DNA of 64,000 bases. Origin: Mobula hypostoma. Lineage: Eukaryota. The position numbers were made by a program, and so were the translations under genes. Of this stretch, positions 7,301 to 62,814 are shown one piece after another; within the stretch, counting starts at the first letter, position 1, and each line of letters begins with the position of its first letter. The notes under the pieces were generated by a model. It saw nothing but the letters and a program-made list of their open reading frames with translations, was not told the origin of the DNA and searched no databases. Location: positions 19,966,001-20,030,000 of the forward strand of contig NC_086097.1 of assembly GCF_963921235.1 (NCBI RefSeq). The letters run 5' to 3'.

Positions 7301-9320
7301 AGAAAACACAGAGCACTGGAATAAAAACAGAAAATAACAATGCATTGTTTTCTGTGCATTAATTTAATTTCAGAACCTGATGACATCAGATGAACACGAA
7401 CAAATGTCTGCAGCGGAAATCAGTTATCTTGCATAAAATAGTCAGGGTTATGGTTTCCTTTCCTGAAATGTGTCCATAAAGTGATTTCCCCAAAATAAGA
7501 ATGTGAAATCTTTAGACTCAAAAGCCCTTAAGAACTGACTTGCAAGGAGTAGACTAGGGTACGGAGGTATAGATGATAGTGGTTACCAGTGAGTGAACTG
7601 TGAGAAATGTTTGCCTGAATGCAGTCTAAGAGGGAGTGACTTGGAGAGCTAACCTACTAATCAGAGAGAAAGCCATCAGCAGTTTAATGAAAGAATATGT
7701 ATTAACGAGAGGCGGCTCAGGGGTCATAATGTTTGATCCTACCCAAAGGAAAGTTTGGAAAGGACATTGGCTTTAACAAAGGCTGATCTCTGCATTGTTT
7801 ACTGGTGGGGGATTTGAGTACTATACCCAAGAACAGACTCCAAGAGAATATTCATCAGGTTGAATTTCTGTCACCTAGTTCTTCCACAACCTGGTGAGGG
7901 CCTGTATTATTTCAATTTTAATATTGTTCCCAACACTGGTTAATTAGAAACTATAAGCCATATGATTTATGAAATAGTTTAAAAAGTTCAAACATTCGAC
8001 ATTTTTATCCTTAAATGAATTTACCTTTTGATAATTAAAACTTGAATTGAAGTTGTAGTCAAATTTTTTTTCCCCACATAAATACTTTTGCTTTTGTATT
8101 AATTTCTGGGTACGCTTTACTCACATACCATCTGCCATCCATTATAATTACACAGTACTACATAATGTAGTATCAGTGGTTTATTGTTCAATATTTTAAA
8201 CCGTCCTTAATTTTTGTTTCATATTCTGCTTACTTTAAGCTAACAGTTGCATGCCAAAAATGTCTTCCAGCATCTATTTCAGTCTTATTTTAAAATTAAG
8301 TACTGGAGGCAGCTTTTAAAAGCCAAAGAAATCAAGCCATGCTAAGAAATAAGGTACTTAATTATGATTCAGTTGAGAGGAGCTAAATTGACTAATAGCA
8401 ATCCAAAAATCATTATGAATACATCACCTTGGGGTGTCCATCACTAGGTTAAACATGATGCTAATTGGAAATGGGCTGATTAATAGCCCTCTGTCCTGTC
8501 TATTCAAATAACACTTAACAAAATAATCAGTGGTGGCTGGCCACCAATTTCCCTAAAAGGAATTAAGCCATCAGAATTAACTGATAGGAAACAAATGAAG
8601 ATGACCTGTAATTACTAAACTGGTGAAGTAATTATCATATTATAGAAAATTATTCTTGATGAAAATCTTGTAAAACTGTGTCTCTAAGTCCGTTTCTTTT
8701 CAATTTCAGGCCCTTCATTTGTAACTCAGAAACACTTTTTCCTTTCATTTTAATTATTTGCCCAGAGACTCTGGAGGTATTTGCTGTCTGTGGTACTATA
8801 ATTAAAAATGCAACTTGGTCAACAAACCTCTCCCTATTTTTGTTTGAAATTTAAACAAATTACAGATGCATGAGAGGGTTCAGTGGGTTACAACAACCAA
8901 GTGCATTCCCCTTACCATGACATAGGCAATCATTTTTGTAGCTTAGGATTGATTTTATGGGTGTATTGGATTTTTTTTAAGAAAAGGAAAACAACTTACA
9001 CTTAATAGCATTATCTACGTGATAAACATCCAAGTGAGCTTTATAAGATTTCAGATAAAACGGAAGTGGATGTCAGTTGAAAGCTGAGTTTTATGGGGAG
9101 GCATTTTAAGAATGTCCCATGGCAGAGGTGTGGCAACTGACAGCTCATTCACTGAGAATGGATGGGAAGGAAAGGAAACAGAGGAAAGCAAGTGATGGAA
9201 CTTTGATACCAGATATTTGAGAATCTGCTGGGGAGGTGGAAGCCAGGTTTTTGTAGGCTGGACTCCAGAGGCCTGTCCTGGGGTATGTGTGGTAACACTT
9301 GGGATGCCCCGTGGACACCA

Positions 9321-9703
9321 GAGCAAGGAGGCCTACAAACCTGACTCAGTTACACCAGTTCTATCTGGAGGAATGGAACAAAATTCCAGCAACTTGCTGT
9401 GAGAAGCTTGTGGAAGGCTACCCAAAACATTTGACCCAAGTTAAACAATTTAAAGGCAATGCTACCAAATACTAACAAAGTGTATGTAAACTTCTGACCA
9501 ACTGGGAAAGTGATGAAAGAAATAAAAGCTGAAATAAATCATTCTCTCTACTATTATTCTGACATTTCACATTCTTAAAATAAAGTAGTGATCCTAACTG
9601 ACCTAAGACAGGGAACGTTTTCTAGGATTAAATGTCAGGAATTGTGAAAAACTGAGCTTAAATGTGTTTGGCTAAGGTGTATGTAAACTTCTGACTTCAG
9701 CTG
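9321..9703 (+). mobile_element. Sleeping Beauty-like (salmonid-subfamily Tc1) transposase C-terminus plus complete right IR/DR
   Basis: 9323-9475 encodes ARRPTNLTQLHQFYLEEWNKIPATCCEKLVEGYPKHLTQVKQFKGNATKY*; direct repeat GTGTATGTAAACTTCTGAC at 9480 and 9677; ends CTG followed by TA (9704-9705). Confidence 0.9.
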
Positions 9704-9705
9704 TA

Positions 9706-9895
9706 TGAACCATCTACAACCACCCTTTGCCTTCCGTGGGCAAGCCAATTCTGGATCCACAAAGCAAGGTCTCCTTGGATCCCATGCCTCCTTACTTTCT
9801 GAAGGAGCCTTGCATGAGGAACCTTATCAAATGCCTTACTGAAATCCATATACACTGTATCACTGCTCTACCTTCATAAATGTGTTTTGCTACAT
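9706..9895 (-). mobile_element. CR1 LINE RT fragment
   Basis: Matches about 61215-61400 of the long CR1 (ACCTTATCAAATGCCTTACTGAAATCCATATA). Confidence 0.7.
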
Positions 9896-9955
9896 AATGA
9901 TCTGAGCTTGTCCCATCATAAAGGAATAGGCCATCTTACCCATCAGATCTGCTGT

Positions 9956-10264
9956 CATAGAAACATAGAAAATAGGTGCAGGAGTAGGCCATTCGGCCCT
10001 TTGAGCCTGCACCGCCATTTATTATGATCATGGCTGATCATCCAACTCAGAACCCCGCCCCAGCCTTCCCTCCATACCCCCTGACCCCTGTAGCCACAAG
10101 GGCCATATCTAACTCCCTCTTAAACATAGCCAATGAACTGGCCTCAACAGTTTGCTGTGGCAGAGAATTCCACAGATTCACCACTCTCTGTGTGAAGAAG
10201 TTTTTCCTAATCTCGGTCCTAAAAGGCTTCCCCTCTATCCTCAAACTGTGACCCCTCGTTCTGT
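9956..10264 (-). mobile_element. CR1 LINE 3' end
   Basis: RTRGHSLRI...FFTQRVVNLWNSLP...FKRELD; short-repeat tail CATAGAAACATAGAAA. Confidence 0.85.
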
Positions 10265-10565
10265 CATTCAATAAGATCAGGGCTGACTTGATCTTAGCTC
10301 CACTTATCTGCCTTTTCCCCAGAACCCTCAATTACCCTGCCACGCAAAAGCAATTTTAAATTATGGTATGAATATAATTCACATTTATATACTAAGTGAA
10401 AGGAGCAGATTCTATATGTCAAAAGTAGTTTTTCTCACTGGAATTACATAAACGATGCAGCACAAACTAGCCTGATCTACTCAGTGTTGGTGGACTTCAC
10501 TTCCTCCATTTCATTCATTCATTTTAGCTTCTCGGTATGCTATTTTCACTCCTTAATCTTACATA

Positions 10566-10781
10566 GGGTTGGCAGGTGGTGTAGTGGTATCAGAACTGGA
10601 CTTCAAAGCAAATGGTCCCGAGTTCAAAACCGGCCAGGTCCCAACCCGGGTAGCAGCAATATCTGTGCAGAAGAAAGGCCTGGCAACCTACTTCCATGTA
10701 TTGCCATGAAATGCTATGGACAACTACACCATCCATGTGGTCACCATGAGTCAACAATAACTTGATGGCTCTCAACAACAT
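10566..10781 (+). mobile_element. tRNA-derived SINE with RTE-type 3' tail
   Basis: A box TGGTGTAGTGG (10577-10587), B box GAGTTCAAAAC (10620-10630), tail GTCACCATGAGTCAAC...TTGATGGC...CAACAACA; perfect 9-bp TSD TCTTACATA (10557-10565, 10782-10790). Confidence 0.8.
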
Positions 10782-16939: not shown

Positions 16940-17700
16940 TCAATACAACAAATTTTTCTGAAGTGTTACTTACTCAATTTTTCTTGTTTATGATAGACCA
17001 CATGAAGCAGAACAAATATGATTTCAGACTTGTATCACATAGGAATTTGGAGAAACAAGAAATTAACTCTTATGGAATATAATGTGTTTAAATGCAAAAC
17101 AGTGCTAATGCTTTGCAATAGGTCAACTAAGCTAAAAATGTTTTGATGATTTTTGTTTGTACTCAGTGTCTGAGACTTCTTGCTTAGGTGTCCAACAACA
17201 ATCAGCCAGCATTAATGGATTCCAGTTGTCCTGATACCATTTCTTCATGACAGCAATGTCTGGTGAAACCTATCACCATTCTTGTCATCGGCAATGCCTA
17301 AATTTTCAGGGAAGTCGTCTAAATGGGAATGCAGAAAATGAATCTTTAAGTGACATGTTGCACTTCATGGTTTTGTATGCTTGAAACATGTTGTCAACCA
17401 GCTGCATGTAGTTGCCAAAATAATTTTCAACAATTTTCCATGAGACTTTCTCCATTCCCACTAGAAGTTCTTTGAATTGCCTGTCAATGAAGACCTGTTT
17501 GATTTGTGGACCAACAAAAATGCCTTCCTTAATCTTGGCATTAGTTATTCTGACACAAAGTAAGAATTGATTTAACAAAAATAGGTGAATTTTTAAAATA
17601 ATGGTGTTATAGGGAAATTTTGTAATTTTCATGATCAGCAGCCCCAAATCCATAAGATACACCCAAAAATATTCAGGAAGCAAAATCTTTGTTGTCCAGA
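16940..17700 (-). mobile_element. Internally deleted DNA transposon, probably CMC-Chapaev3
   Basis: Minus-strand AKIKEGIFVGPQIKQ, then frameshifted IHFLHSHLD and GDRFHQ-like motifs; decayed inverted ends ACAACAAATTTTTCT / AAAATCTTTGTTGTCCAG. Confidence 0.55.
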
Positions 17701-17711
17701 ATATTCAGGAT

Positions 17712-23234: not shown

Positions 23235-23356
23235 TGTAGTCACGCGCAAACATGCTACTAAAGAAACACGCAGACGCAGAGAGAGCTGAGCTCAGAATGC
23301 CCTTACTGATTCAAAATCGCGAGCTTAAATCTCCCCTCCCACGGGCCCCGGCGACC
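23235..23356 (-). repeat. Truncated 3' LTR
   Basis: Aligns to 25512-25632 with about 15 differences counted by eye, then joins directly to pol sequence. Confidence 0.85.
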
Positions 23357-24704
23357 CACCGACTCTCGGGTGCACTAGGAGGGCTGCCTTTGCCAGCACC
23401 TCCTGGGCCTGCTCGAACACCTCCGTGGACTCCGTGTCCCGTGCCACTTCTTTGGCCTTGTTGGCCATCAGGCTGAACAAGGGTCTCATGATGCGTGCCG
23501 CCGCCGGCACGAACCGATGATAAAAGTTGACCATCCCTACAAACTCCTGCAGGCCCTTGACCATGCTGGGCTTGGGGAACTGGCAGATGGCCTGGACCTT
23601 ATCCAGTAGGGGAACTGCGCCATCTCGGTTAACTTTGTGGCCCAAGAAGTCGACCTCCGTCAGCCCAAACTGGAACTTTGCCAGATTGATTGCCAGTCTG
23701 TGTTCGCTCAGGCGTTGGCAGAGCTGGCGCAAATGTGCCACGTGCTCTTGGTGCGAACTGCTGACCACCAGGATATCGTCCAAGTAAATGAAAACAAAAT
23801 CCAGGCCACGTCCCACCAAGTCCATGAGCCTTTGGAAAGTTTGGGCTGCATTCTTGAGACTGAAGGGCATCCTCAGGAATTCGAACAAGCCGAACTGGGT
23901 GATGAGTGTTGTCTTGGGCACATCGTCGGGGTGCACTGGGATCTGATGGTATCCCCTGACCAGGTCGATTTTCGAGCAGATGGTTGCTCCGTGCAGGTTC
24001 GCCGTGAAGTCCTGGATGTGGGGTACCGGGTATCTGTTGGCGGTTGTGGCATCGTTGAGCCTTCTGTAGTCTCTGCAGGGCCTCCAGCCTCCTGCGGACT
24101 TGGGCACTATGTGCAGCGGGGATGCCCACGGGCTGTCTGAGCAGCGTACGATTTCCATCTCTCCCATCTTACTGAACTTCTGCTTGGCGAGGTAGAGCTT
24201 GTCGGGTGGGAGCCTGCGAGCTCGGGCGTGCAGCGGCAGTCCTTGCGTGGGGATGTGGTGCTGCACGCCGAGCTTAGGGTCGGCCGTGGAGAACTGCGGG
24301 GTGACTATGGAGGGGAATTCCGCCAACACCCTGGCGAATTCGTTACCCGAAAGTGTCACAGATTTCAGGTGGAGGGCCGGTAGCTTGGCTTCTCCGAGCT
24401 GGAAAATCTGGATCATCTCGGCGTGGACCAAACGCCGGCCTTTTAGGTCGACCAGGAGGCAATTGGCTCGTAGGAAATCTGCCCCTAGTAGGGGCTGTGA
24501 CAACGCTGCCAACGTGAAAGTCCAAGTGAAGTGGCTGGATCCAAAATGCAGTGAGATAGTTCGCGGGCCATACGTCTGAATACTGGTGCCATTTGCAGTG
24601 GTGAGTTCGGGACCTGGGACCGTGTTACAAGTGTCCAAGTTCGGGGGGGTGGGGGGGGGGGGAGTACGCTGACTTCGGCCACGGTGTCTACCAGGAAGCA
24701 CCAC
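23325..24704 (-). CDS. Gypsy pol fragment (protease C-half plus reverse transcriptase; no RNase H or integrase)
   Basis: PLLGADFL, SPWASPLHIVPK, DYRRLN, KIDLVRGYHQIPV, MPFSLKNAAQTFQR, YLDDILV, FVGMVNFYHRF; genuine pol homology spans about 23357-24640. Confidence 0.85.
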   Translation of the reverse strand: MVLPGRHRGRSQRTPPPPTPPNLDTCNTVPGPELTTANGTSIQTYGPRTISLHFGSSHFTWTFTLAALSQPLLGADFLRANCLLVDLKGRRLVHAEMIQIFQLGEAKLPALHLKSVTLSGNEFARVLAEFPSIVTPQFSTADPKLGVQHHIPTQGLPLHARARRLPPDKLYLAKQKFSKMGEMEIVRCSDSPWASPLHIVPKSAGGWRPCRDYRRLNDATTANRYPVPHIQDFTANLHGATICSKIDLVRGYHQIPVHPDDVPKTTLITQFGLFEFLRMPFSLKNAAQTFQRLMDLVGRGLDFVFIYLDDILVVSSSHQEHVAHLRQLCQRLSEHRLAINLAKFQFGLTEVDFLGHKVNRDGAVPLLDKVQAICQFPKPSMVKGLQEFVGMVNFYHRFVPAAARIMRPLFSLMANKAKEVARDTESTEVFEQAQEVLAKAALLVHPRVGGSPGPVGGEI

Positions 24705-25456
24705 CCGGAGTGTCGGTCCCAGAGGTACAGGAGGCTATCTCGATGGCCAGCCGTCGTAGCCATTGGCAACAGCTGGCCCCGGCGTTTCCCGGAAAAGCAC
24801 ACGGTGGACGGCAGCGCCGCGCGCCTGAGCCCCATCTTTGGTGATAGAAACACCATTGCTCCGAACTTTTGTCTTTTTCCCGTGGGTCTCGACGGCTTCG
24901 GTTGTGGGGCCTGGGCTTTGGGGCACACAATCATGGCTAGGCCGATGGAGGCTGCTCCACGTTGCTTGCTCTGCCAAATGACATCTGCTTTAGCTGTGAC
25001 CCTGCGTGGGTTGCTGAAATCCTCACTCGCGAGGAGGAGGCGAATGTCCTCTGGCATTTGCTCAAGGAACAACTGTTCAAATAGAAGGCATGGCTTATGA
25101 CCATTCATGAGCGCCAGCATATCATTCATGAGCTTGGATGGCGTGCGGTCGCCCAGGCCGTCCATGTGTAGGAGCCGCGTGGCCAGTTCGCAGCGGCAGA
25201 GACTGAAGGTACGGATCAGAAGCGCCTTAAGCTTCGTGTACCCGTCCTCCGTTGGTGGCTGGCGTAGGAAGTCGATGATCCGGCCTGCCGTCTCCTGGTC
25301 GAGTGTGCTGACCACGTAGTAGTATCGCGTGGCATCGGCTGTAATGACTCTGATATTGAACTGGGCCTCAGCCTGCTCGAACCAAACGTGGGGCTGAGTG
25401 GCCCAGAAGGTCGGGAGCTTCAGAGAGACCGCGCTGTGCGAGTTGCTCGAACTCAT
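24485..25456 (-). pseudogene. Gypsy gag and protease start, frameshifted
   Basis: VSLKLPTFW...WFEQAEAQF gag signature; CHCC knuckle CFYHQRWGSGARRCRPPC in the 24688-24930 frame; protease FLVDTVAEVSVLP. Confidence 0.85.
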
Positions 25457-25495
25457 GGCTGGTCGCTGAGTCCCCAGCTCCAGAAGCCGTCTGGA

Positions 25496-25510
25496 ACGTC
25501 GGGGTTACCA
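25496..25510 (-). other. Primer-binding site complementary to the tRNA-Trp 3' end
   Basis: TGGTAACCCCGACGT one base inside the 5' LTR; one mismatch to TGGTGACCCCGACGT. Confidence 0.8.
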
Positions 25511-25511
25511 A

Positions 25512-25761
25512 TGTAGTCGCGCGCAAACGCGCTACTAAAGAAACACACGGAGGCAGAGAGAGATGAACTCAGAATGCCTTTAGTGATTCAAAATCGCACG
25601 CTTAAATCTCCCTCCCATGGGCCCCTGCGACCTGTGGGGTGGACATGATGTCAGACTATCCCCGGAAGGTCCGCCCCAAGCGGGTAGTTCCAAACGCGCT
25701 ATCGCGTGTTTGCCTGTGGCTCCCGATGGCGGTTCGAGTCCCGCGTGTGCAGGCCGCCACA
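25512..25761 (-). repeat. 5' LTR (250 bp)
   Basis: TGTGG...CTACA on the minus strand, adjacent to the primer site. Confidence 0.88.
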
Positions 25762-35859: not shown

Positions 35860-36367
35860 CAATCAGTGTCTACTTTATTAGGGACAGGAGTAGAACCCAG
35901 TGTGGTTTTCTGCTGCTGTAGCCAATCCACTTCAAAGTTCAATGTGTTGTGCATTCAGGGATGCTCTTCTGAACACCACATTTAATGCATGGTTATTTGA
36001 GTTACTGTCGCCTTCCTGTCAGCCTGAACCAGTCTGGCAGTTTTCCTCTGACCTCTCTCTTTAACAAGGCATTTTCACCCACAGAGTTGCCGCTCACTGG
36101 ATGTTTCTTTTTTTAAACCATTCTCTGTAAACTGTAGACACTGTTGTACACGAAAGTCCCAGATCAGCAGTTCCTAAGATGCTCCAACCAACAATCATTC
36201 CATGGTCAAAGTCATATTGCATCACATTTCTTGCCCATTCTGATGTTTGGTCTGAACAACTGAACCTCTTGACCATTTATGCATTGAGATGCTGCCACAT
36301 GATTGGCTGCTTAGATATTTGCATTAACAAGGTGTACAGGCATACCTAATAAAGTGGCCATTGTGTG
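35860..36367 (-). mobile_element. Non-autonomous Tc1-like element
   Basis: TIRs CAGTGTCTACTTTATTAGG / CCTAATAAAGTGGCCATTG; peptide DFDHGMIVG..SILGTADLGLSCTTVSTVYREW. Confidence 0.8.
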
Positions 36368-39854: not shown

Positions 39855-41700
39855 AGAGAACTATAGCACAGAAACAGGCCCTTCGGCCCATGCAGTCCAT
39901 GCCAAACTATTATTCTGCCTAGTCCCATTGAGCTGCACTTGGGCCAAAGCCCTCCCATCCATGTACTTATCCAAACTTCTCTTAAATGTTGAAATCAAAC
40001 CCCCATTCATCACTTCCACTGTCAACTCATTCCACACTCTCACCACCCTCTCAGTGAAGAAGTTCCCCTTCATGTTCCCCTTAAATACTTTACCTTTCAC
40101 CCTTAATCCATGACATCTGGTTCTAGGCTCACCCAACCGCATTGGAAAAAACCTGCATATACAAATGTAATTATCCTATCAATACCCCTCAATTTTGTAT
40201 ACAGGTTTCCCCCGCTATCCGAAGGTAGAGCGTCCTATGAAACAGTTCGTAAGCCGGACTGTCATAAAGTGAATAAGTGATTACCATTTATTAATATGGG
40301 GAAAATTTTTGAGCGTTCCCAGACCCAAAAAATAACCTACAAAATCCTGCCAAATAACACATAAAACCTAAAATAACAGTAGCATATAGTAAAAGCAGGA
40401 ATGATATGATAAATACACAGCCTATATAAAGTGTCTAGCTCAGCGAAAATCTCGCTGAAGCGCTCTCAGCAGAAAAACTCTCTCCAGTAACCTTAAAGCT
40501 ATGAAGCTGTCAAATCACACCAAATAACACATAAAAATACACAGCCGATATAAAGTAGAAATAATGTATGTACAGTGTAGTATCACTTACCGGAATCGGG
40601 AAGACTTCAATAAATTGCAGTTTTGTCACAGTTAAACACTTGCTTATACGAATAACCATCTGACGCAATCGGCAATTGCCTCTGATCTGGGCCGACATTT
40701 ATGTGCTGGGCGGCACATAAAGCTAATTAATTAGCTTGTTTATTTTGGCTCTTTTCTTAAGGATGTGCTGGGTGCATTCCGACTACTGCTGCACCCCTGC
40801 ATACTTCACGGCAATGTATCAGTCCGCGGCCCAGAGGTTGGGGACCACTGCTTAAACTATGAAGCTGCCCTCGCCTCAGAAACTGATCAAATCACCCATG
40901 ACTACCTTTAAATTCCACTTTAGCAACACTTTCATCACCATCGTCCAGTGCTTTCTGTTTCAGCTTATTAAAAAGACTGATTTCTCCTTAAGTATAAGAA
41001 AATTTAACAGAACACCACGCTTTGTACACCCATCAGTCCACTCAAGCAATAGACATTCCATTTTATCCATTATTGGATGCCGCTAAGAGAGACCACTTTG
41101 CTATGAGCAGAACCAACAGTAACATCCGCAGCTTTCAAAATTTTTTCTCTCTGCGTATAAATAGTGCGAATGGTGGACGCAGGCAAGTTCAACACGTGGA
41201 CAATGTCCTTACTTCGTTCACCACGATCGAAACAATTAATTATGTCTAGTTTTACGCTAAGTGTAACACCCTTACGAGCTCTTTTAGGCTTTTCCGATAC
41301 CTTAGAACTAATCTTGCTAACGGTTGCACAAAATAAAACAAGATAAAGTACGTGTTTAAGCAATGCCGGCTAGAATGCAGTTCCAGGGGGAGGGGCTTGG
41401 CTGTTCAGGCGTGCGTTGTATTTTTTCGTAACAGTGAAAACACCTTCTGTTAGCAAAAACAGGTAACTAATGTAGGTCTTTCATAACAACGAGGTGTCAT
41501 AAAGCAAATGTTCAGAAAACGGGGGCCACATGTACCTCTATCAAATCTCCCTTCATTCTCCTACACTCTAGGGAATAAAGTCCTAATCTATTCAAATTTT
41601 CCATATAACTCAAGTCTTCAAAATCCTTGCAAATTTTCTTTGCATTCTTAATGTTATTGATAACTTTCCTGTAGGTATGTAGGTGACCAGAACTATATAC
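39855..41700 (-). mobile_element. CR1 3' part split by a Tigger insertion (39855-40201 and 41533-41700)
   Basis: Flanks rejoin as AATTTTGTATACCTCTATCAAATCT, as in the uninterrupted copy near 28936. Confidence 0.8.
40202..41532 (-). mobile_element. Tigger/pogo-type element, internally deleted
   Basis: TA TSDs (40200-40201, 41533-41534); TIRs CAGGTTTCCCCCG / CGGGGGCCACATG; CENP-B/psq-like HTH peptide KRARKGVTLSVKLDII...LNLPASTIRTI (41070-41363). Confidence 0.85.
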
Positions 41701-60195: not shown

Positions 60196-62170
60196 ATAGA
60201 ACATAGAACATAGAACATAGAATAGTACAGCACAGTACAGGCCCTTCGGCCCACAATGTTGTGCCGACCCTCAAACCCTGCCTCCCATATAAGCCCCCAC
60301 CTTAAATTCCTCCATATACCTGTCTAGTAGTCTCTTAAACTTCACTAGTGTATCTGCCTCCACCACTGACTCAGGCAGTGCATTCCACGCACCAACCACT
60401 CTGAGTAAAATACCTTCCTCTAATATCCCCCTTGAACTTCCCATCCCTTACCTTAAAGCCATGTCCTCTTGTATTGAGCAGTGGTGTCCTGGGGAAGAGG
60501 TGCTGGCTATCTACTCTATCTATTCCTCTTACTATCTTGTACACCTCTATCATGTCTCCTCTCATCCTCCTTCTCTCCAAAGAGTGAAGCCCTAGCTCCC
60601 TTAATCTCTGATCATAATGCATACTTTCTAAACCAGGCAGCATCCTGGTAAATCTCCTCTGTACCCTTTTCCAATGCTACCACATCCTTCCTATAGTGAG
60701 GTGACCAGAACTGGACACAGTACTCCAAGTGTGGCCTAACCAGGGTTTTATAGAGCTGCAACATTACATCGCAACTCTTAAACTCTATCCCTCGACTTAT
60801 GAAAGCTAACACCCCATAAGCTTTCTTAACTACCCTATTCACCTGTTAGGCAACTTTCAGGGATCTGTGGACATGTACCCCCAGATCCCTCTGCTCCTCC
60901 ACACTACCAAGTATCCTGCCATTTACTTTGTACTCTGCCTTGGAGTTTGTCCTTCCAAAGTGTACCACCTCACACTTCTCTGGGTTGAACTCCATCTGCC
61001 ACTTCTCAGCCCACTTCTGCATCCTATCAATGTCTCTCTGCAATCTTTGACAATCCTCTACACTATCTACAACACCACCAACCTTTGCGTCGTCCGCAAA
61101 CTTGCCAACCCACCCTTCTACCCCCACATCCAGGTCGTTAATAAAAATCACGAAAAGTAGAGGTCCCAGAACAGATCCTTGTGGGACACCACTAGTCACA
61201 ATCCTCCAATCTGAATGTACTCCCTCCACCACCACCCTCTGCCTTCTGCAGGCAAGCCAATTCTGAATCCACCTGGCCAAACTTCCCTGGATCCCATACC
61301 TTCTAACTTTCTGAATAAGCCTACCGTGTGGAACCTTGTCAAATGCCTTACCAAAATCCATATAGATCACATCCACTGCACTACCCTCATCTATATGTCT
61401 GGTCACCTCCTCAAAGAACCCCATCAGGCTTGTTAGACACCATCTGCCTTTCACAAAGCCATGCTGGCTGTCCCTGATCAGACCATGATTCTCTAAATGC
61501 CTATAGATCCTATCTCTAAGAATCTTTTCCAACAGCTTTCCCACCACAGACGTAAGGCTCACTGGTCTATAATTACCCGGACTATCCCTACTACCTTTTT
61601 TGAACAAGGGGACAACATTCACCTCCCTCCAATCCTCCAGTACCATTCCCATGGACAACGAGGACATAAAGATCCTAGCCAGAGGCTCAGCAATCTCTTC
61701 TCTCGCCTCGTGGAGCAGCCTGGGGAATATTCCGTCAAGCCCCGGGGACTTATCTGTCCTAATGTATTTTAACAACTCCAACACCTCCTCTCCCTTAATA
61801 TCAACATGCTCCAGAACATCAACCTCACTCATATTGTCCTCATCATCATCAAGTTCCCTCTCATTGGTGTATACCGAAGAGAAGTATTCATTGAGGACCT
61901 CGCTCACTTCCACAGCCTCCAGGCACATCTTCCCACCTTTACCTCTAATTGGTCCTACCTTCACTCCTGTCATCCTTTTTTTCTTCACATAATTGAAGAA
62001 TGCCTTGGGGTTTTCCTTTACCCTACTCACCAAGGCCTTCTCATGCCCCCTTCTTGCTCTTCTCAGCTCCTTCTTAAGCTCCTTTCTTGCTTCCCCATAT
62101 TCCTCAATAGACCCATCTGATCCTTGCTTCCTAAACCTCATGTATGCTGCCTTCTTCCACCTGACTAGAT
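60196..62170 (-). mobile_element. Young 5'-truncated CR1 LINE inserted in an older opposite-strand CR1 (59925-60195 and 62171-62275)
   Basis: (TAGAACA)n tail at 60196; long RT ORF plus two frameshifted C-terminal ORFs (60612-60842, 60371-60643). Confidence 0.93.
60846..62141 (-). CDS. CR1 ORF2 reverse transcriptase domain (partial, no endonuclease)
   Basis: KSPGLDGIFP, NYRPVSLTS, QHGF, DFGKAFDKV, GVPQGSVLGP, KFADD. Confidence 0.9.
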   Translation of the reverse strand: MRFRKQGSDGSIEEYGEARKELKKELRRARRGHEKALVSRVKENPKAFFNYVKKKRMTGVKVGPIRGKGGKMCLEAVEVSEVLNEYFSSVYTNERELDDDEDNMSEVDVLEHVDIKGEEVLELLKYIRTDKSPGLDGIFPRLLHEAREEIAEPLARIFMSSLSMGMVLEDWREVNVVPLFKKGSRDSPGNYRPVSLTSVVGKLLEKILRDRIYRHLENHGLIRDSQHGFVKGRWCLTSLMGFFEEVTRHIDEGSAVDVIYMDFGKAFDKVPHGRLIQKVRRYGIQGSLARWIQNWLACRRQRVVVEGVHSDWRIVTSGVPQGSVLGPLLFVIFINDLDVGVEGWVGKFADDAKVGGVVDSVEDCQRLQRDIDRMQKWAEKWQMEFNPEKCEVVHFGRTNSKAEYKVNGRILGSVEEQRDLGVHVHRSLKVA

Positions 62171-62814
62171 CATGGAGGGCTATGGTCCAGATACAACCAT
62201 GATGGAACTTGGTAAAAGATCAGACTGTCATGGACTAGATGGGGTGGGTGGCCTGTTCCAGTGCTCTATGACTAAGAATGGAACATGCAGTAACCTGTAC
62301 ATTGTTTTACACTACATTGGATTAATTGTCTTTACTCTAAAATGGAACCAAGACTCATCTCAACTGTTCAGCCCAAAGCTGTAAAAATATAACAAACAGA
62401 TTAGGTTTAATAACCAAAGAAGATGCTGCTACCATCAACAATGGCTTAGGGCAGCAACAGCAAGTAATCTGTAATTGATCACCTACTTTTAAGCCTCCGA
62501 TCGAATTTCTTAGTGACCAGAAACTAGTGAATAAATTGTTACATAACATTGCAGTATTATAATAACATGTAAAACTCAGAACAAAAATCAGATACCTACA
62601 TTCATCTAGTCCAAGCTGATATGCAAGATTCTGGAGCCCTCGTACTTTCTCCATTAAGTTTGCAGTTGTAAGGCTTCCCAACTCTGTGATAGAAACCACA
62701 ATTCACTAAGATACCATAACTAGAGCATAACAAGATGTTACAATTAAACTTGTTCAATATGCTAAGACCAAGTCCACAACTTAACGTGACAATTTTATTT
62801 TAAACACAATTGAT

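Follow-up and report, generated by a model that had tools for sequence, protein, structure and literature searches.

A Sleeping Beauty-type transposon end in a probable ray genome, and the case for its horizontal transfer

Introduction

How did the end of a Tc1 transposon resembling Sleeping Beauty (SB) come to lie in DNA that appears to belong to a cartilaginous fish, by horizontal transfer or by descent from a common ancestor? The locus was found in a 64-kb stretch of DNA (hereafter the window), and an original prediction made from its letters had favored transfer. In the available text of PMC9777934, SB is recorded from 107 ray-finned species and one mollusc and from no chondrichthyan, and the sole cartilaginous-fish entry is a ZB-like element labelled Calmil. 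The large vertebrate transfer survey of PMC7070016 sampled Callorhinchus and Rhincodon; in its available text four batoid or catshark genus names gave no match and no batoid is found among the sampled species. Tc1/mariner values of 2.30% in rays, 3.28% in skates, and 0.14% in sharks are given in the available parts of PMC12361510 and its preprint, and the word "horizontal" is absent from the journal text as available. The accessible part of PMC13320814 added nothing on rays. No report of SB in rays was found in the open-licence literature searched.

Results and Discussion

The window contains the right end of an SB-type element

The sequence at 9321-9703 corresponds to the final 383 bp of an SB-type Tc1 element of about 1639 bp. 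Its first part (9321-9475, plus strand) is the 3' end of the transposase gene, in which codons 9323-9472 specify residues 291-340, 50 residues without interruption, followed by a TAA stop at 9473-9475. The reading frame is open from 9296, but homology begins only at 9321, and the bases upstream are unlike those of the full-length element. The transposase fragment begins at residue 290-291, that is, past the third catalytic residue E279; D153, D244, and E279, all seen in the relative L002 described below, lie outside the 9321-9475 fragment.

The gene end is followed by a complete right terminal inverted repeat (IR/DR, as defined in the available text of PMC7827188) of 225 bp at 9479-9703 on the plus strand, delimited by alignment to L002. 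The 22-nt core of the inner direct repeat (9477-9498, plus strand) is a putative transposase-binding site by analogy with SB as described in the same source, and the 22-nt core of the outer direct repeat (9674-9695, plus strand) belongs to a site that extends to the element end at 9703. The two cores are identical at 21 of 22 positions. The repeat is 94% identical to the right repeats of L001/L002 and about 68% to their left repeats, and it was assigned to the right end accordingly. Two traits of the SB clade were observed: the inverted repeat, about 220 bp long in the clade and 225 bp here, carries both an inner and an outer direct repeat, and the fragment is highly similar to SB in its transposase and right-repeat sequence (40/50 residues to SB100X; 93-94% of the DNA to L001/L002). 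The TA target dinucleotide is present as its right copy only (9704-9705, no strand); the left end is lost, and the duplicated pair cannot be seen. No second SB piece was detected in the 64-kb window, which therefore also lacks the left repeat where the half-DR enhancer of the clade would lie. The base at 9700, fourth from the element end, is unlike that of all four L001/L002 ends; it is absent from the listed sites private to the window copy and is possibly a family-level end variant.

The fragment matches Sleeping Beauty and natural salmonid-type elements

When the 50-residue peptide was searched against 177,635 PDB sequences (E up to 10), the catalytic domain of SB100X (5cr4) was the sole match (E 2.5e-21). 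The identity was 40/50 to SB100X, 41/50 to L002, and 42/50 to L001. The last two are natural elements from a metagenome scan that returned four loci (L001-L004), of which two were used; L003 and L004 were dropped as weak matches (39% and 57% over short segments). Each of L001 and L002 is a full 1639-bp element flanked by a TA on either side, and their mutual identity is 99.1%. L002 (749-2387) has an intact 340-residue frame with D153, D244, and E279 (spacing 34) and both repeats, and its departures from the SB100X catalytic domain are essentially confined to 214-217, 243, and 314, the engineered sites named in the available text of PMC4820933. Its identity to the salmonid-named proteins P0096, P0125, and P0124 is 91-94%, and to the gapped P0081 83%. 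L002 itself sits at a TA in an apparent remnant of another Tc1 element. SB DNA was absent from the plasmids, viral contigs, and prokaryote genomes searched.

From 9321 to the TA, the window fragment aligned without gaps to L001 (362/386 identical) and L002 (360/386), and a blastn E value of 5e-170 excluded chance. The coding identity was 92.9% to L001 and 91.6% to L002, and the non-coding part was identical at 215/228 positions, including 158 of the 165 bases (95.8%) of the spacer between the direct repeats. The synonymous divergence (dS) was 0.047 to L001 and 0.079 to L002 on about 33 synonymous sites. The dN/dS ratios of the window copy, 1.2 and 1.8 on sites too few to test, are about 1 and give no sign that purifying selection acted across the transfer.

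Most of what had been predicted from the letters is borne out by these comparisons: the Tc1 end is of SB type, with an uninterrupted 50-residue C-terminus and a repeat of about 225 bp carrying inner and outer direct repeats and a TA; the 41/50 identity given for SB holds; and the non-coding DNA is indeed highly similar. Set against SB10/SB100X and the salmonid-type elements, the likeness comprises the C-terminus, the 225-bp right IR/DR with its two direct repeats, the TA flank, and the gap-free DNA identity, whereas the ray family differs in its ray host, six residue changes, and the altered fourth base from the end, and the window copy in being a one-ended fragment.

The host is very likely a myliobatiform ray with further copies

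The longest LINE frame in the window (60849-62219) encodes a reverse transcriptase (Pfam RVT_1). Among the matches listed, its identity was 86% to a Mobula hypostoma protein, 85% to one of Hypanus sabinus, and 64-75% to three shark proteins, and no teleost-named protein occurred among the 120 listed of 1332 matches. The sequence of this reverse transcriptase, ray-like rather than teleost-like, indicates that the host is very likely a myliobatiform ray, in keeping with the cartilaginous-fish host that had been presumed.

The top match of 221 to the transposase fragment was the M. hypostoma TTC33 isoform X3 (P0002, XP_062905703.1; 45/50 residues), in which the C-terminal ~67 residues are SB-type transposase (residues about 162-235). 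Since no TTC33 sequence is encoded in the window, this represents a second SB copy at a different locus. The TTC33 X3 model ends in the SB-type piece, and its frame enters the inner direct repeat for a few residues; judged from the gene model, its last exon is possibly an exonised SB copy. Weak Gag_p30 hits (Pfam) to P0001/P0002 fell below the cut-off and were disregarded.

Both P0002 and a further record, P0312, have Leu for the usual Pro at residue 277, two before the catalytic E279, which is retained in both. Leu277 was found in 5 of the 183 fetched proteins containing the motif, and it may be a family-wide change in the ray-type group.

The ray copies form a sub-lineage outside the salmonid clade

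The window and Mobula copies have six differences from L002 in common (L303F, Q305L, A309N, H312P, P313A, and G317E). At residues 303, 312, 313, and 317 the ray copies match the Prochilodus/Sparus/Muraenolepis lineage, and at the other positions the salmonid type. The eight-column pattern of the window was seen only in P0002 among 160 scored proteins, and a later search added P0312 to this ray-type group. In 67-column trees with a midpoint root, the ray group (89/85 and 91/85, unstarred) fell between two teleost groups, and the ray copies lay outside the salmonid clade (97/94). P0124 and P0152 were dropped from one tree as rows without the matching C-terminal segment, and P0333, 25% filled in the other, was given no weight. 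On these sequences the ray copies are a sub-lineage of their own, sister to and outside the salmonid clade. They lack L303, H312, P313, and G317 and so fall outside the narrow salmonid subfamily, for which we take Tss1 to be the name. Placed outside the salmonid clade under a midpoint root, the ray copies point to no particular donor or direction.

The non-salmonid teleost lineage (Prochilodus, Sparus, Muraenolepis, and Trichomycterus) resembles the ray copies in F303, P312, A313, and E317 and in 40-41/50 identical residues, but it is 82-86% identical to L002 over the full-length protein and, in the protein comparison, unlike the ray copies at 314 and 331 among other positions. A Trichomycterus protein that shares L305 was considered as donor and rejected, being 90-92% identical to the non-salmonid lineage and 83% to L002. 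A supposed link between G317E and hyperactivity was dropped, as no supporting report was found in the literature.

The copy most likely inserted into a LINE and later lost its left part

To the right of the element, a CR1-type LINE reverse-transcriptase remnant (9704-9885, minus strand; 76% identical over 54 residues and 77% in DNA to the window LINE reverse transcriptase) starts exactly at the TA. In all four runs mapped for read depth, other copies of this LINE extend leftwards from exactly 9704, as seen from loose ends. Because other LINE copies extend past exactly this point, the SB element most likely inserted at a TA within a CR1 LINE.

The left flank (8800-9320, no strand) is single-copy and meets the element at an abrupt 5' break at 9320/9321 without a TA. 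This flank was considered as the remaining half of the CR1 target, an idea discarded because its 8-nt match was equalled in 224 of 1000 shuffles, and self-insertion at 9321 is unlikely because the break is not at a TA. Since the left flank is neither the rest of this LINE nor a TA, the left repeat was most likely deleted later, along with the bulk of the gene and the neighboring part of the LINE. According to the available text of PMC7827188, SB mobilisation requires all four binding sites; the window copy, with one end and no catalytic codons, cannot encode a working transposase and is by the four-site rule predicted to be immobile on its own.

Related elements are abundant in the reads of two species

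Part of the region 8400-10600 was contained in 20 runs from 7 studies, with fractions of words present of 0.88-0.89 for organism A and 0.70-0.73 for organism B. Read depth was mapped in four of these runs, X1 (organism A), X5 (B), X9, and X20 (H). In X1 and X5 the left flank had a depth of about 10-23 and the element of about 1e5; the resulting ratios of about 14,600 and 10,900 are contig-summed and are not copy numbers, and they point to thousands of SB copies in organisms A and B. At seven listed sites most copies in X1/X5 differ from the window, and at all seven they carry the L002 base, so that the window copy has private changes at 7 of 385 sites (1.8%). Family-level differences from L002 occur at 19 of 385 sites, of which 9/228 are non-coding. 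A recombinant patch at 9359-9402 was considered, as it holds 9 of the 19 sites (p 0.002), but it lost support when neighboring sites were counted as single events (6 of 14 events, p 0.08).

The left junction was recovered in one contig per run, spanning 8800-9349 in X1 without differences and 8800-9350 in X5, where 6 substitutions and 2 insertions were counted. The overlap with the element is 29 and 30 letters, against the 31 of the formal bridging rule; contigs built from 31-letter words would be expected to stop short on entering a high-copy repeat. At the right junction (9703/9704), which has repeats on both sides, no bridging piece was found among those listed. For the proposed check of the flanks by reads, the left junction is present in contigs of two species, one or two letters short of the rule. 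X1 may derive from the source sample. Because X5 comes from another species and another study and has the same left junction, the truncated copy would predate the A/B split.

Both X9 and X20 contain the element and the flanking LINE, and in X9 loose ends at 9321 run on into upstream transposase sequence. The left flank is uncovered in these two runs, which is no evidence of its absence. The element-to-LINE depth ratio was 0.086 in A and 0.085 in B, and 0.007 in H (run X20), about twelve times less. The variant mix of X20 differs at 9397, 9496, and 9509 and is nearer the salmonid base at 9397 and 9509; a second SB subfamily or a separate invasion is possible in organism H.

Divergence is far below that expected from vertical descent

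In the available text of PMC7070016, the cartilaginous/bony split is placed at 473 My and the vertebrate synonymous rate at 3.1e-9 per site per year, and transfer is called when the transposon Ks is below 99.5% of the host orthologue Ks at a species split of more than 120 My. Here the transposon dS of 0.05-0.08 was set against the published average rate, which stands in for the host Ks. Had the element descended vertically for 473 My, its rate would have been 4-7e-11 substitutions per site per year, 41-72 times below 3.1e-9 (PMC7070016). Vertical descent predicts about 2.9 substitutions per site, and the observed value is 0.04-0.07. The comparison spans 385 bp, and shark/skate patchiness rests on literature totals. 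With divergence about 40-70 times below the vertical expectation, the SB family was very likely transferred horizontally, as the original prediction had proposed.

Cartilaginous fishes evolve slowly, and the direct repeats are constrained by transposase binding, both of which count for inheritance from the jawed-vertebrate ancestor under unusually strong conservation. Yet some 1.6 substitutions per site would be expected even for a ray branch slowed ten-fold, the repeats are separated by a 165-bp spacer as conserved as noted above, synonymous sites differ by 5-8%, and the window LINE protein is only 64-75% identical between ray and sharks, which together make vertical descent highly improbable. 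We regard it as equally improbable that salmonid DNA or an SB vector was joined to a ray contig by contamination or mis-assembly. The shortfall of the left junction against the bridging rule and the unbridged right junction leave some room for such an artefact, but species A and B, which come from different studies, have the junction in common, their flanks differ by 6 substitutions and 2 insertions, and the element depth is about 1e4 times that of the flank in both. Moreover, most copies share the 19 family-level differences from L002, and an M. hypostoma RefSeq model (TTC33 X3) contains another copy in which the diagnostic residues recur.

Within horizontal transfer, the most likely route, and a probable one, leads from an SB lineage of bony fishes into rays; it is favored only because SB diversity is concentrated in bony fishes. 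The alternative is that the salmonid lineage derives from rays or their relatives, or that both received the element separately from a third host, such as a parasite or an invertebrate. It would accommodate ray copies that lie outside the salmonid clade and keep F303, P312, A313, and E317 of the Prochilodus/Sparus/Muraenolepis-type lineage, and the record P0312 in the ray-type group; the one mollusc with SB in PMC9777934 and the Tc1 matches in fish parasites given in PMC3516227 (both as far as the available texts go) also speak for it. The far greater SB diversity in ray-finned fishes (107 species in 33 orders in the available text of PMC9777934), the teleost names of several deeper lineages among the matches, and the mere two fetched proteins besides the query in the ray-type group weigh against it, and we consider this alternative unlikely.

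Under the preferred reading of entry from bony fishes, an active element of the SB lineage would have entered the germ line of rays well after rays and bony fishes diverged, from a donor other than a salmonid Tss1 copy. By binding the four direct repeats, the transposase would have cut copies out and pasted them in at TA sites, in the case of the window copy within a CR1 remnant. Before the A/B split, roughly three quarters of the element, left repeat included, would then have been deleted together with the neighboring stretch of the LINE, after which the window copy would have drifted, acquiring its 7 private substitutions.

The finding widens the host range of the SB clade from ray-finned fishes to rays

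What is new is the host lineage and the sub-lineage; the element and the process are already well known. That Tc1 elements pass between aquatic vertebrates is well documented, and the window copy is a dead fragment. A precedent is the Tc1 transfer between teleosts and lampreys described in PMC3516227, in whose available text 92-99% identity across a deep vertebrate split and thousands of copies in a non-teleost host are likewise reported; that case differs in concerning another Tc1 family (the DTSsa1 group), a jawless host, and a proposed parasite-host route. The ZB-like element of Callorhinchus milii (PMC9777934, available text) is similar as a member of a teleost-centred DD34E/Tc1 family in a cartilaginous fish, but it belongs to the ZB-like clade and a chimaera, and the present element to SB and a ray.

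For the batoid Tc1/mariner expansion, in whose description horizontal transfer is not mentioned, the SB family is a specific candidate that can be dated. The family may also be a reservoir of natural SB variants, as the original prediction proposed for full-length copies; its changes cluster around residue 314, one of the sites engineered in SB100X. A broader proposal, which we put forward tentatively and consider rather unlikely, is that devil rays and their relatives harbor a separate, recently amplified SB sister lineage with thousands of copies, that intact and possibly active elements exist among them, that their natural transposase and end variants are tuned in a non-teleost host, and that the lineage makes up part of the batoid Tc1/mariner excess and has donated last exons (TTC33).

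Other features of the window

Remnants of other mobile elements were also observed. On the minus strand, 23235-25632 holds an LTR-retroelement remnant with a reverse transcriptase (Pfam RVT_1), a DUF7041 frame, and flanking repeats 88% alike over 122 bp. Two copies of one repeat, 75% alike, lie at 636-1052 and 35921-36353; their frame has no Pfam match and presumably resembles another Tc1-type DNA-binding region. The frame at 17306-17704 gave no match in a Pfam search, and we take it to resemble a Chapaev-type transposase. Finally, the frame at 41070-41369 contains a CENP-B N-terminal domain and is probably a remnant of a pogo/Tigger transposon.
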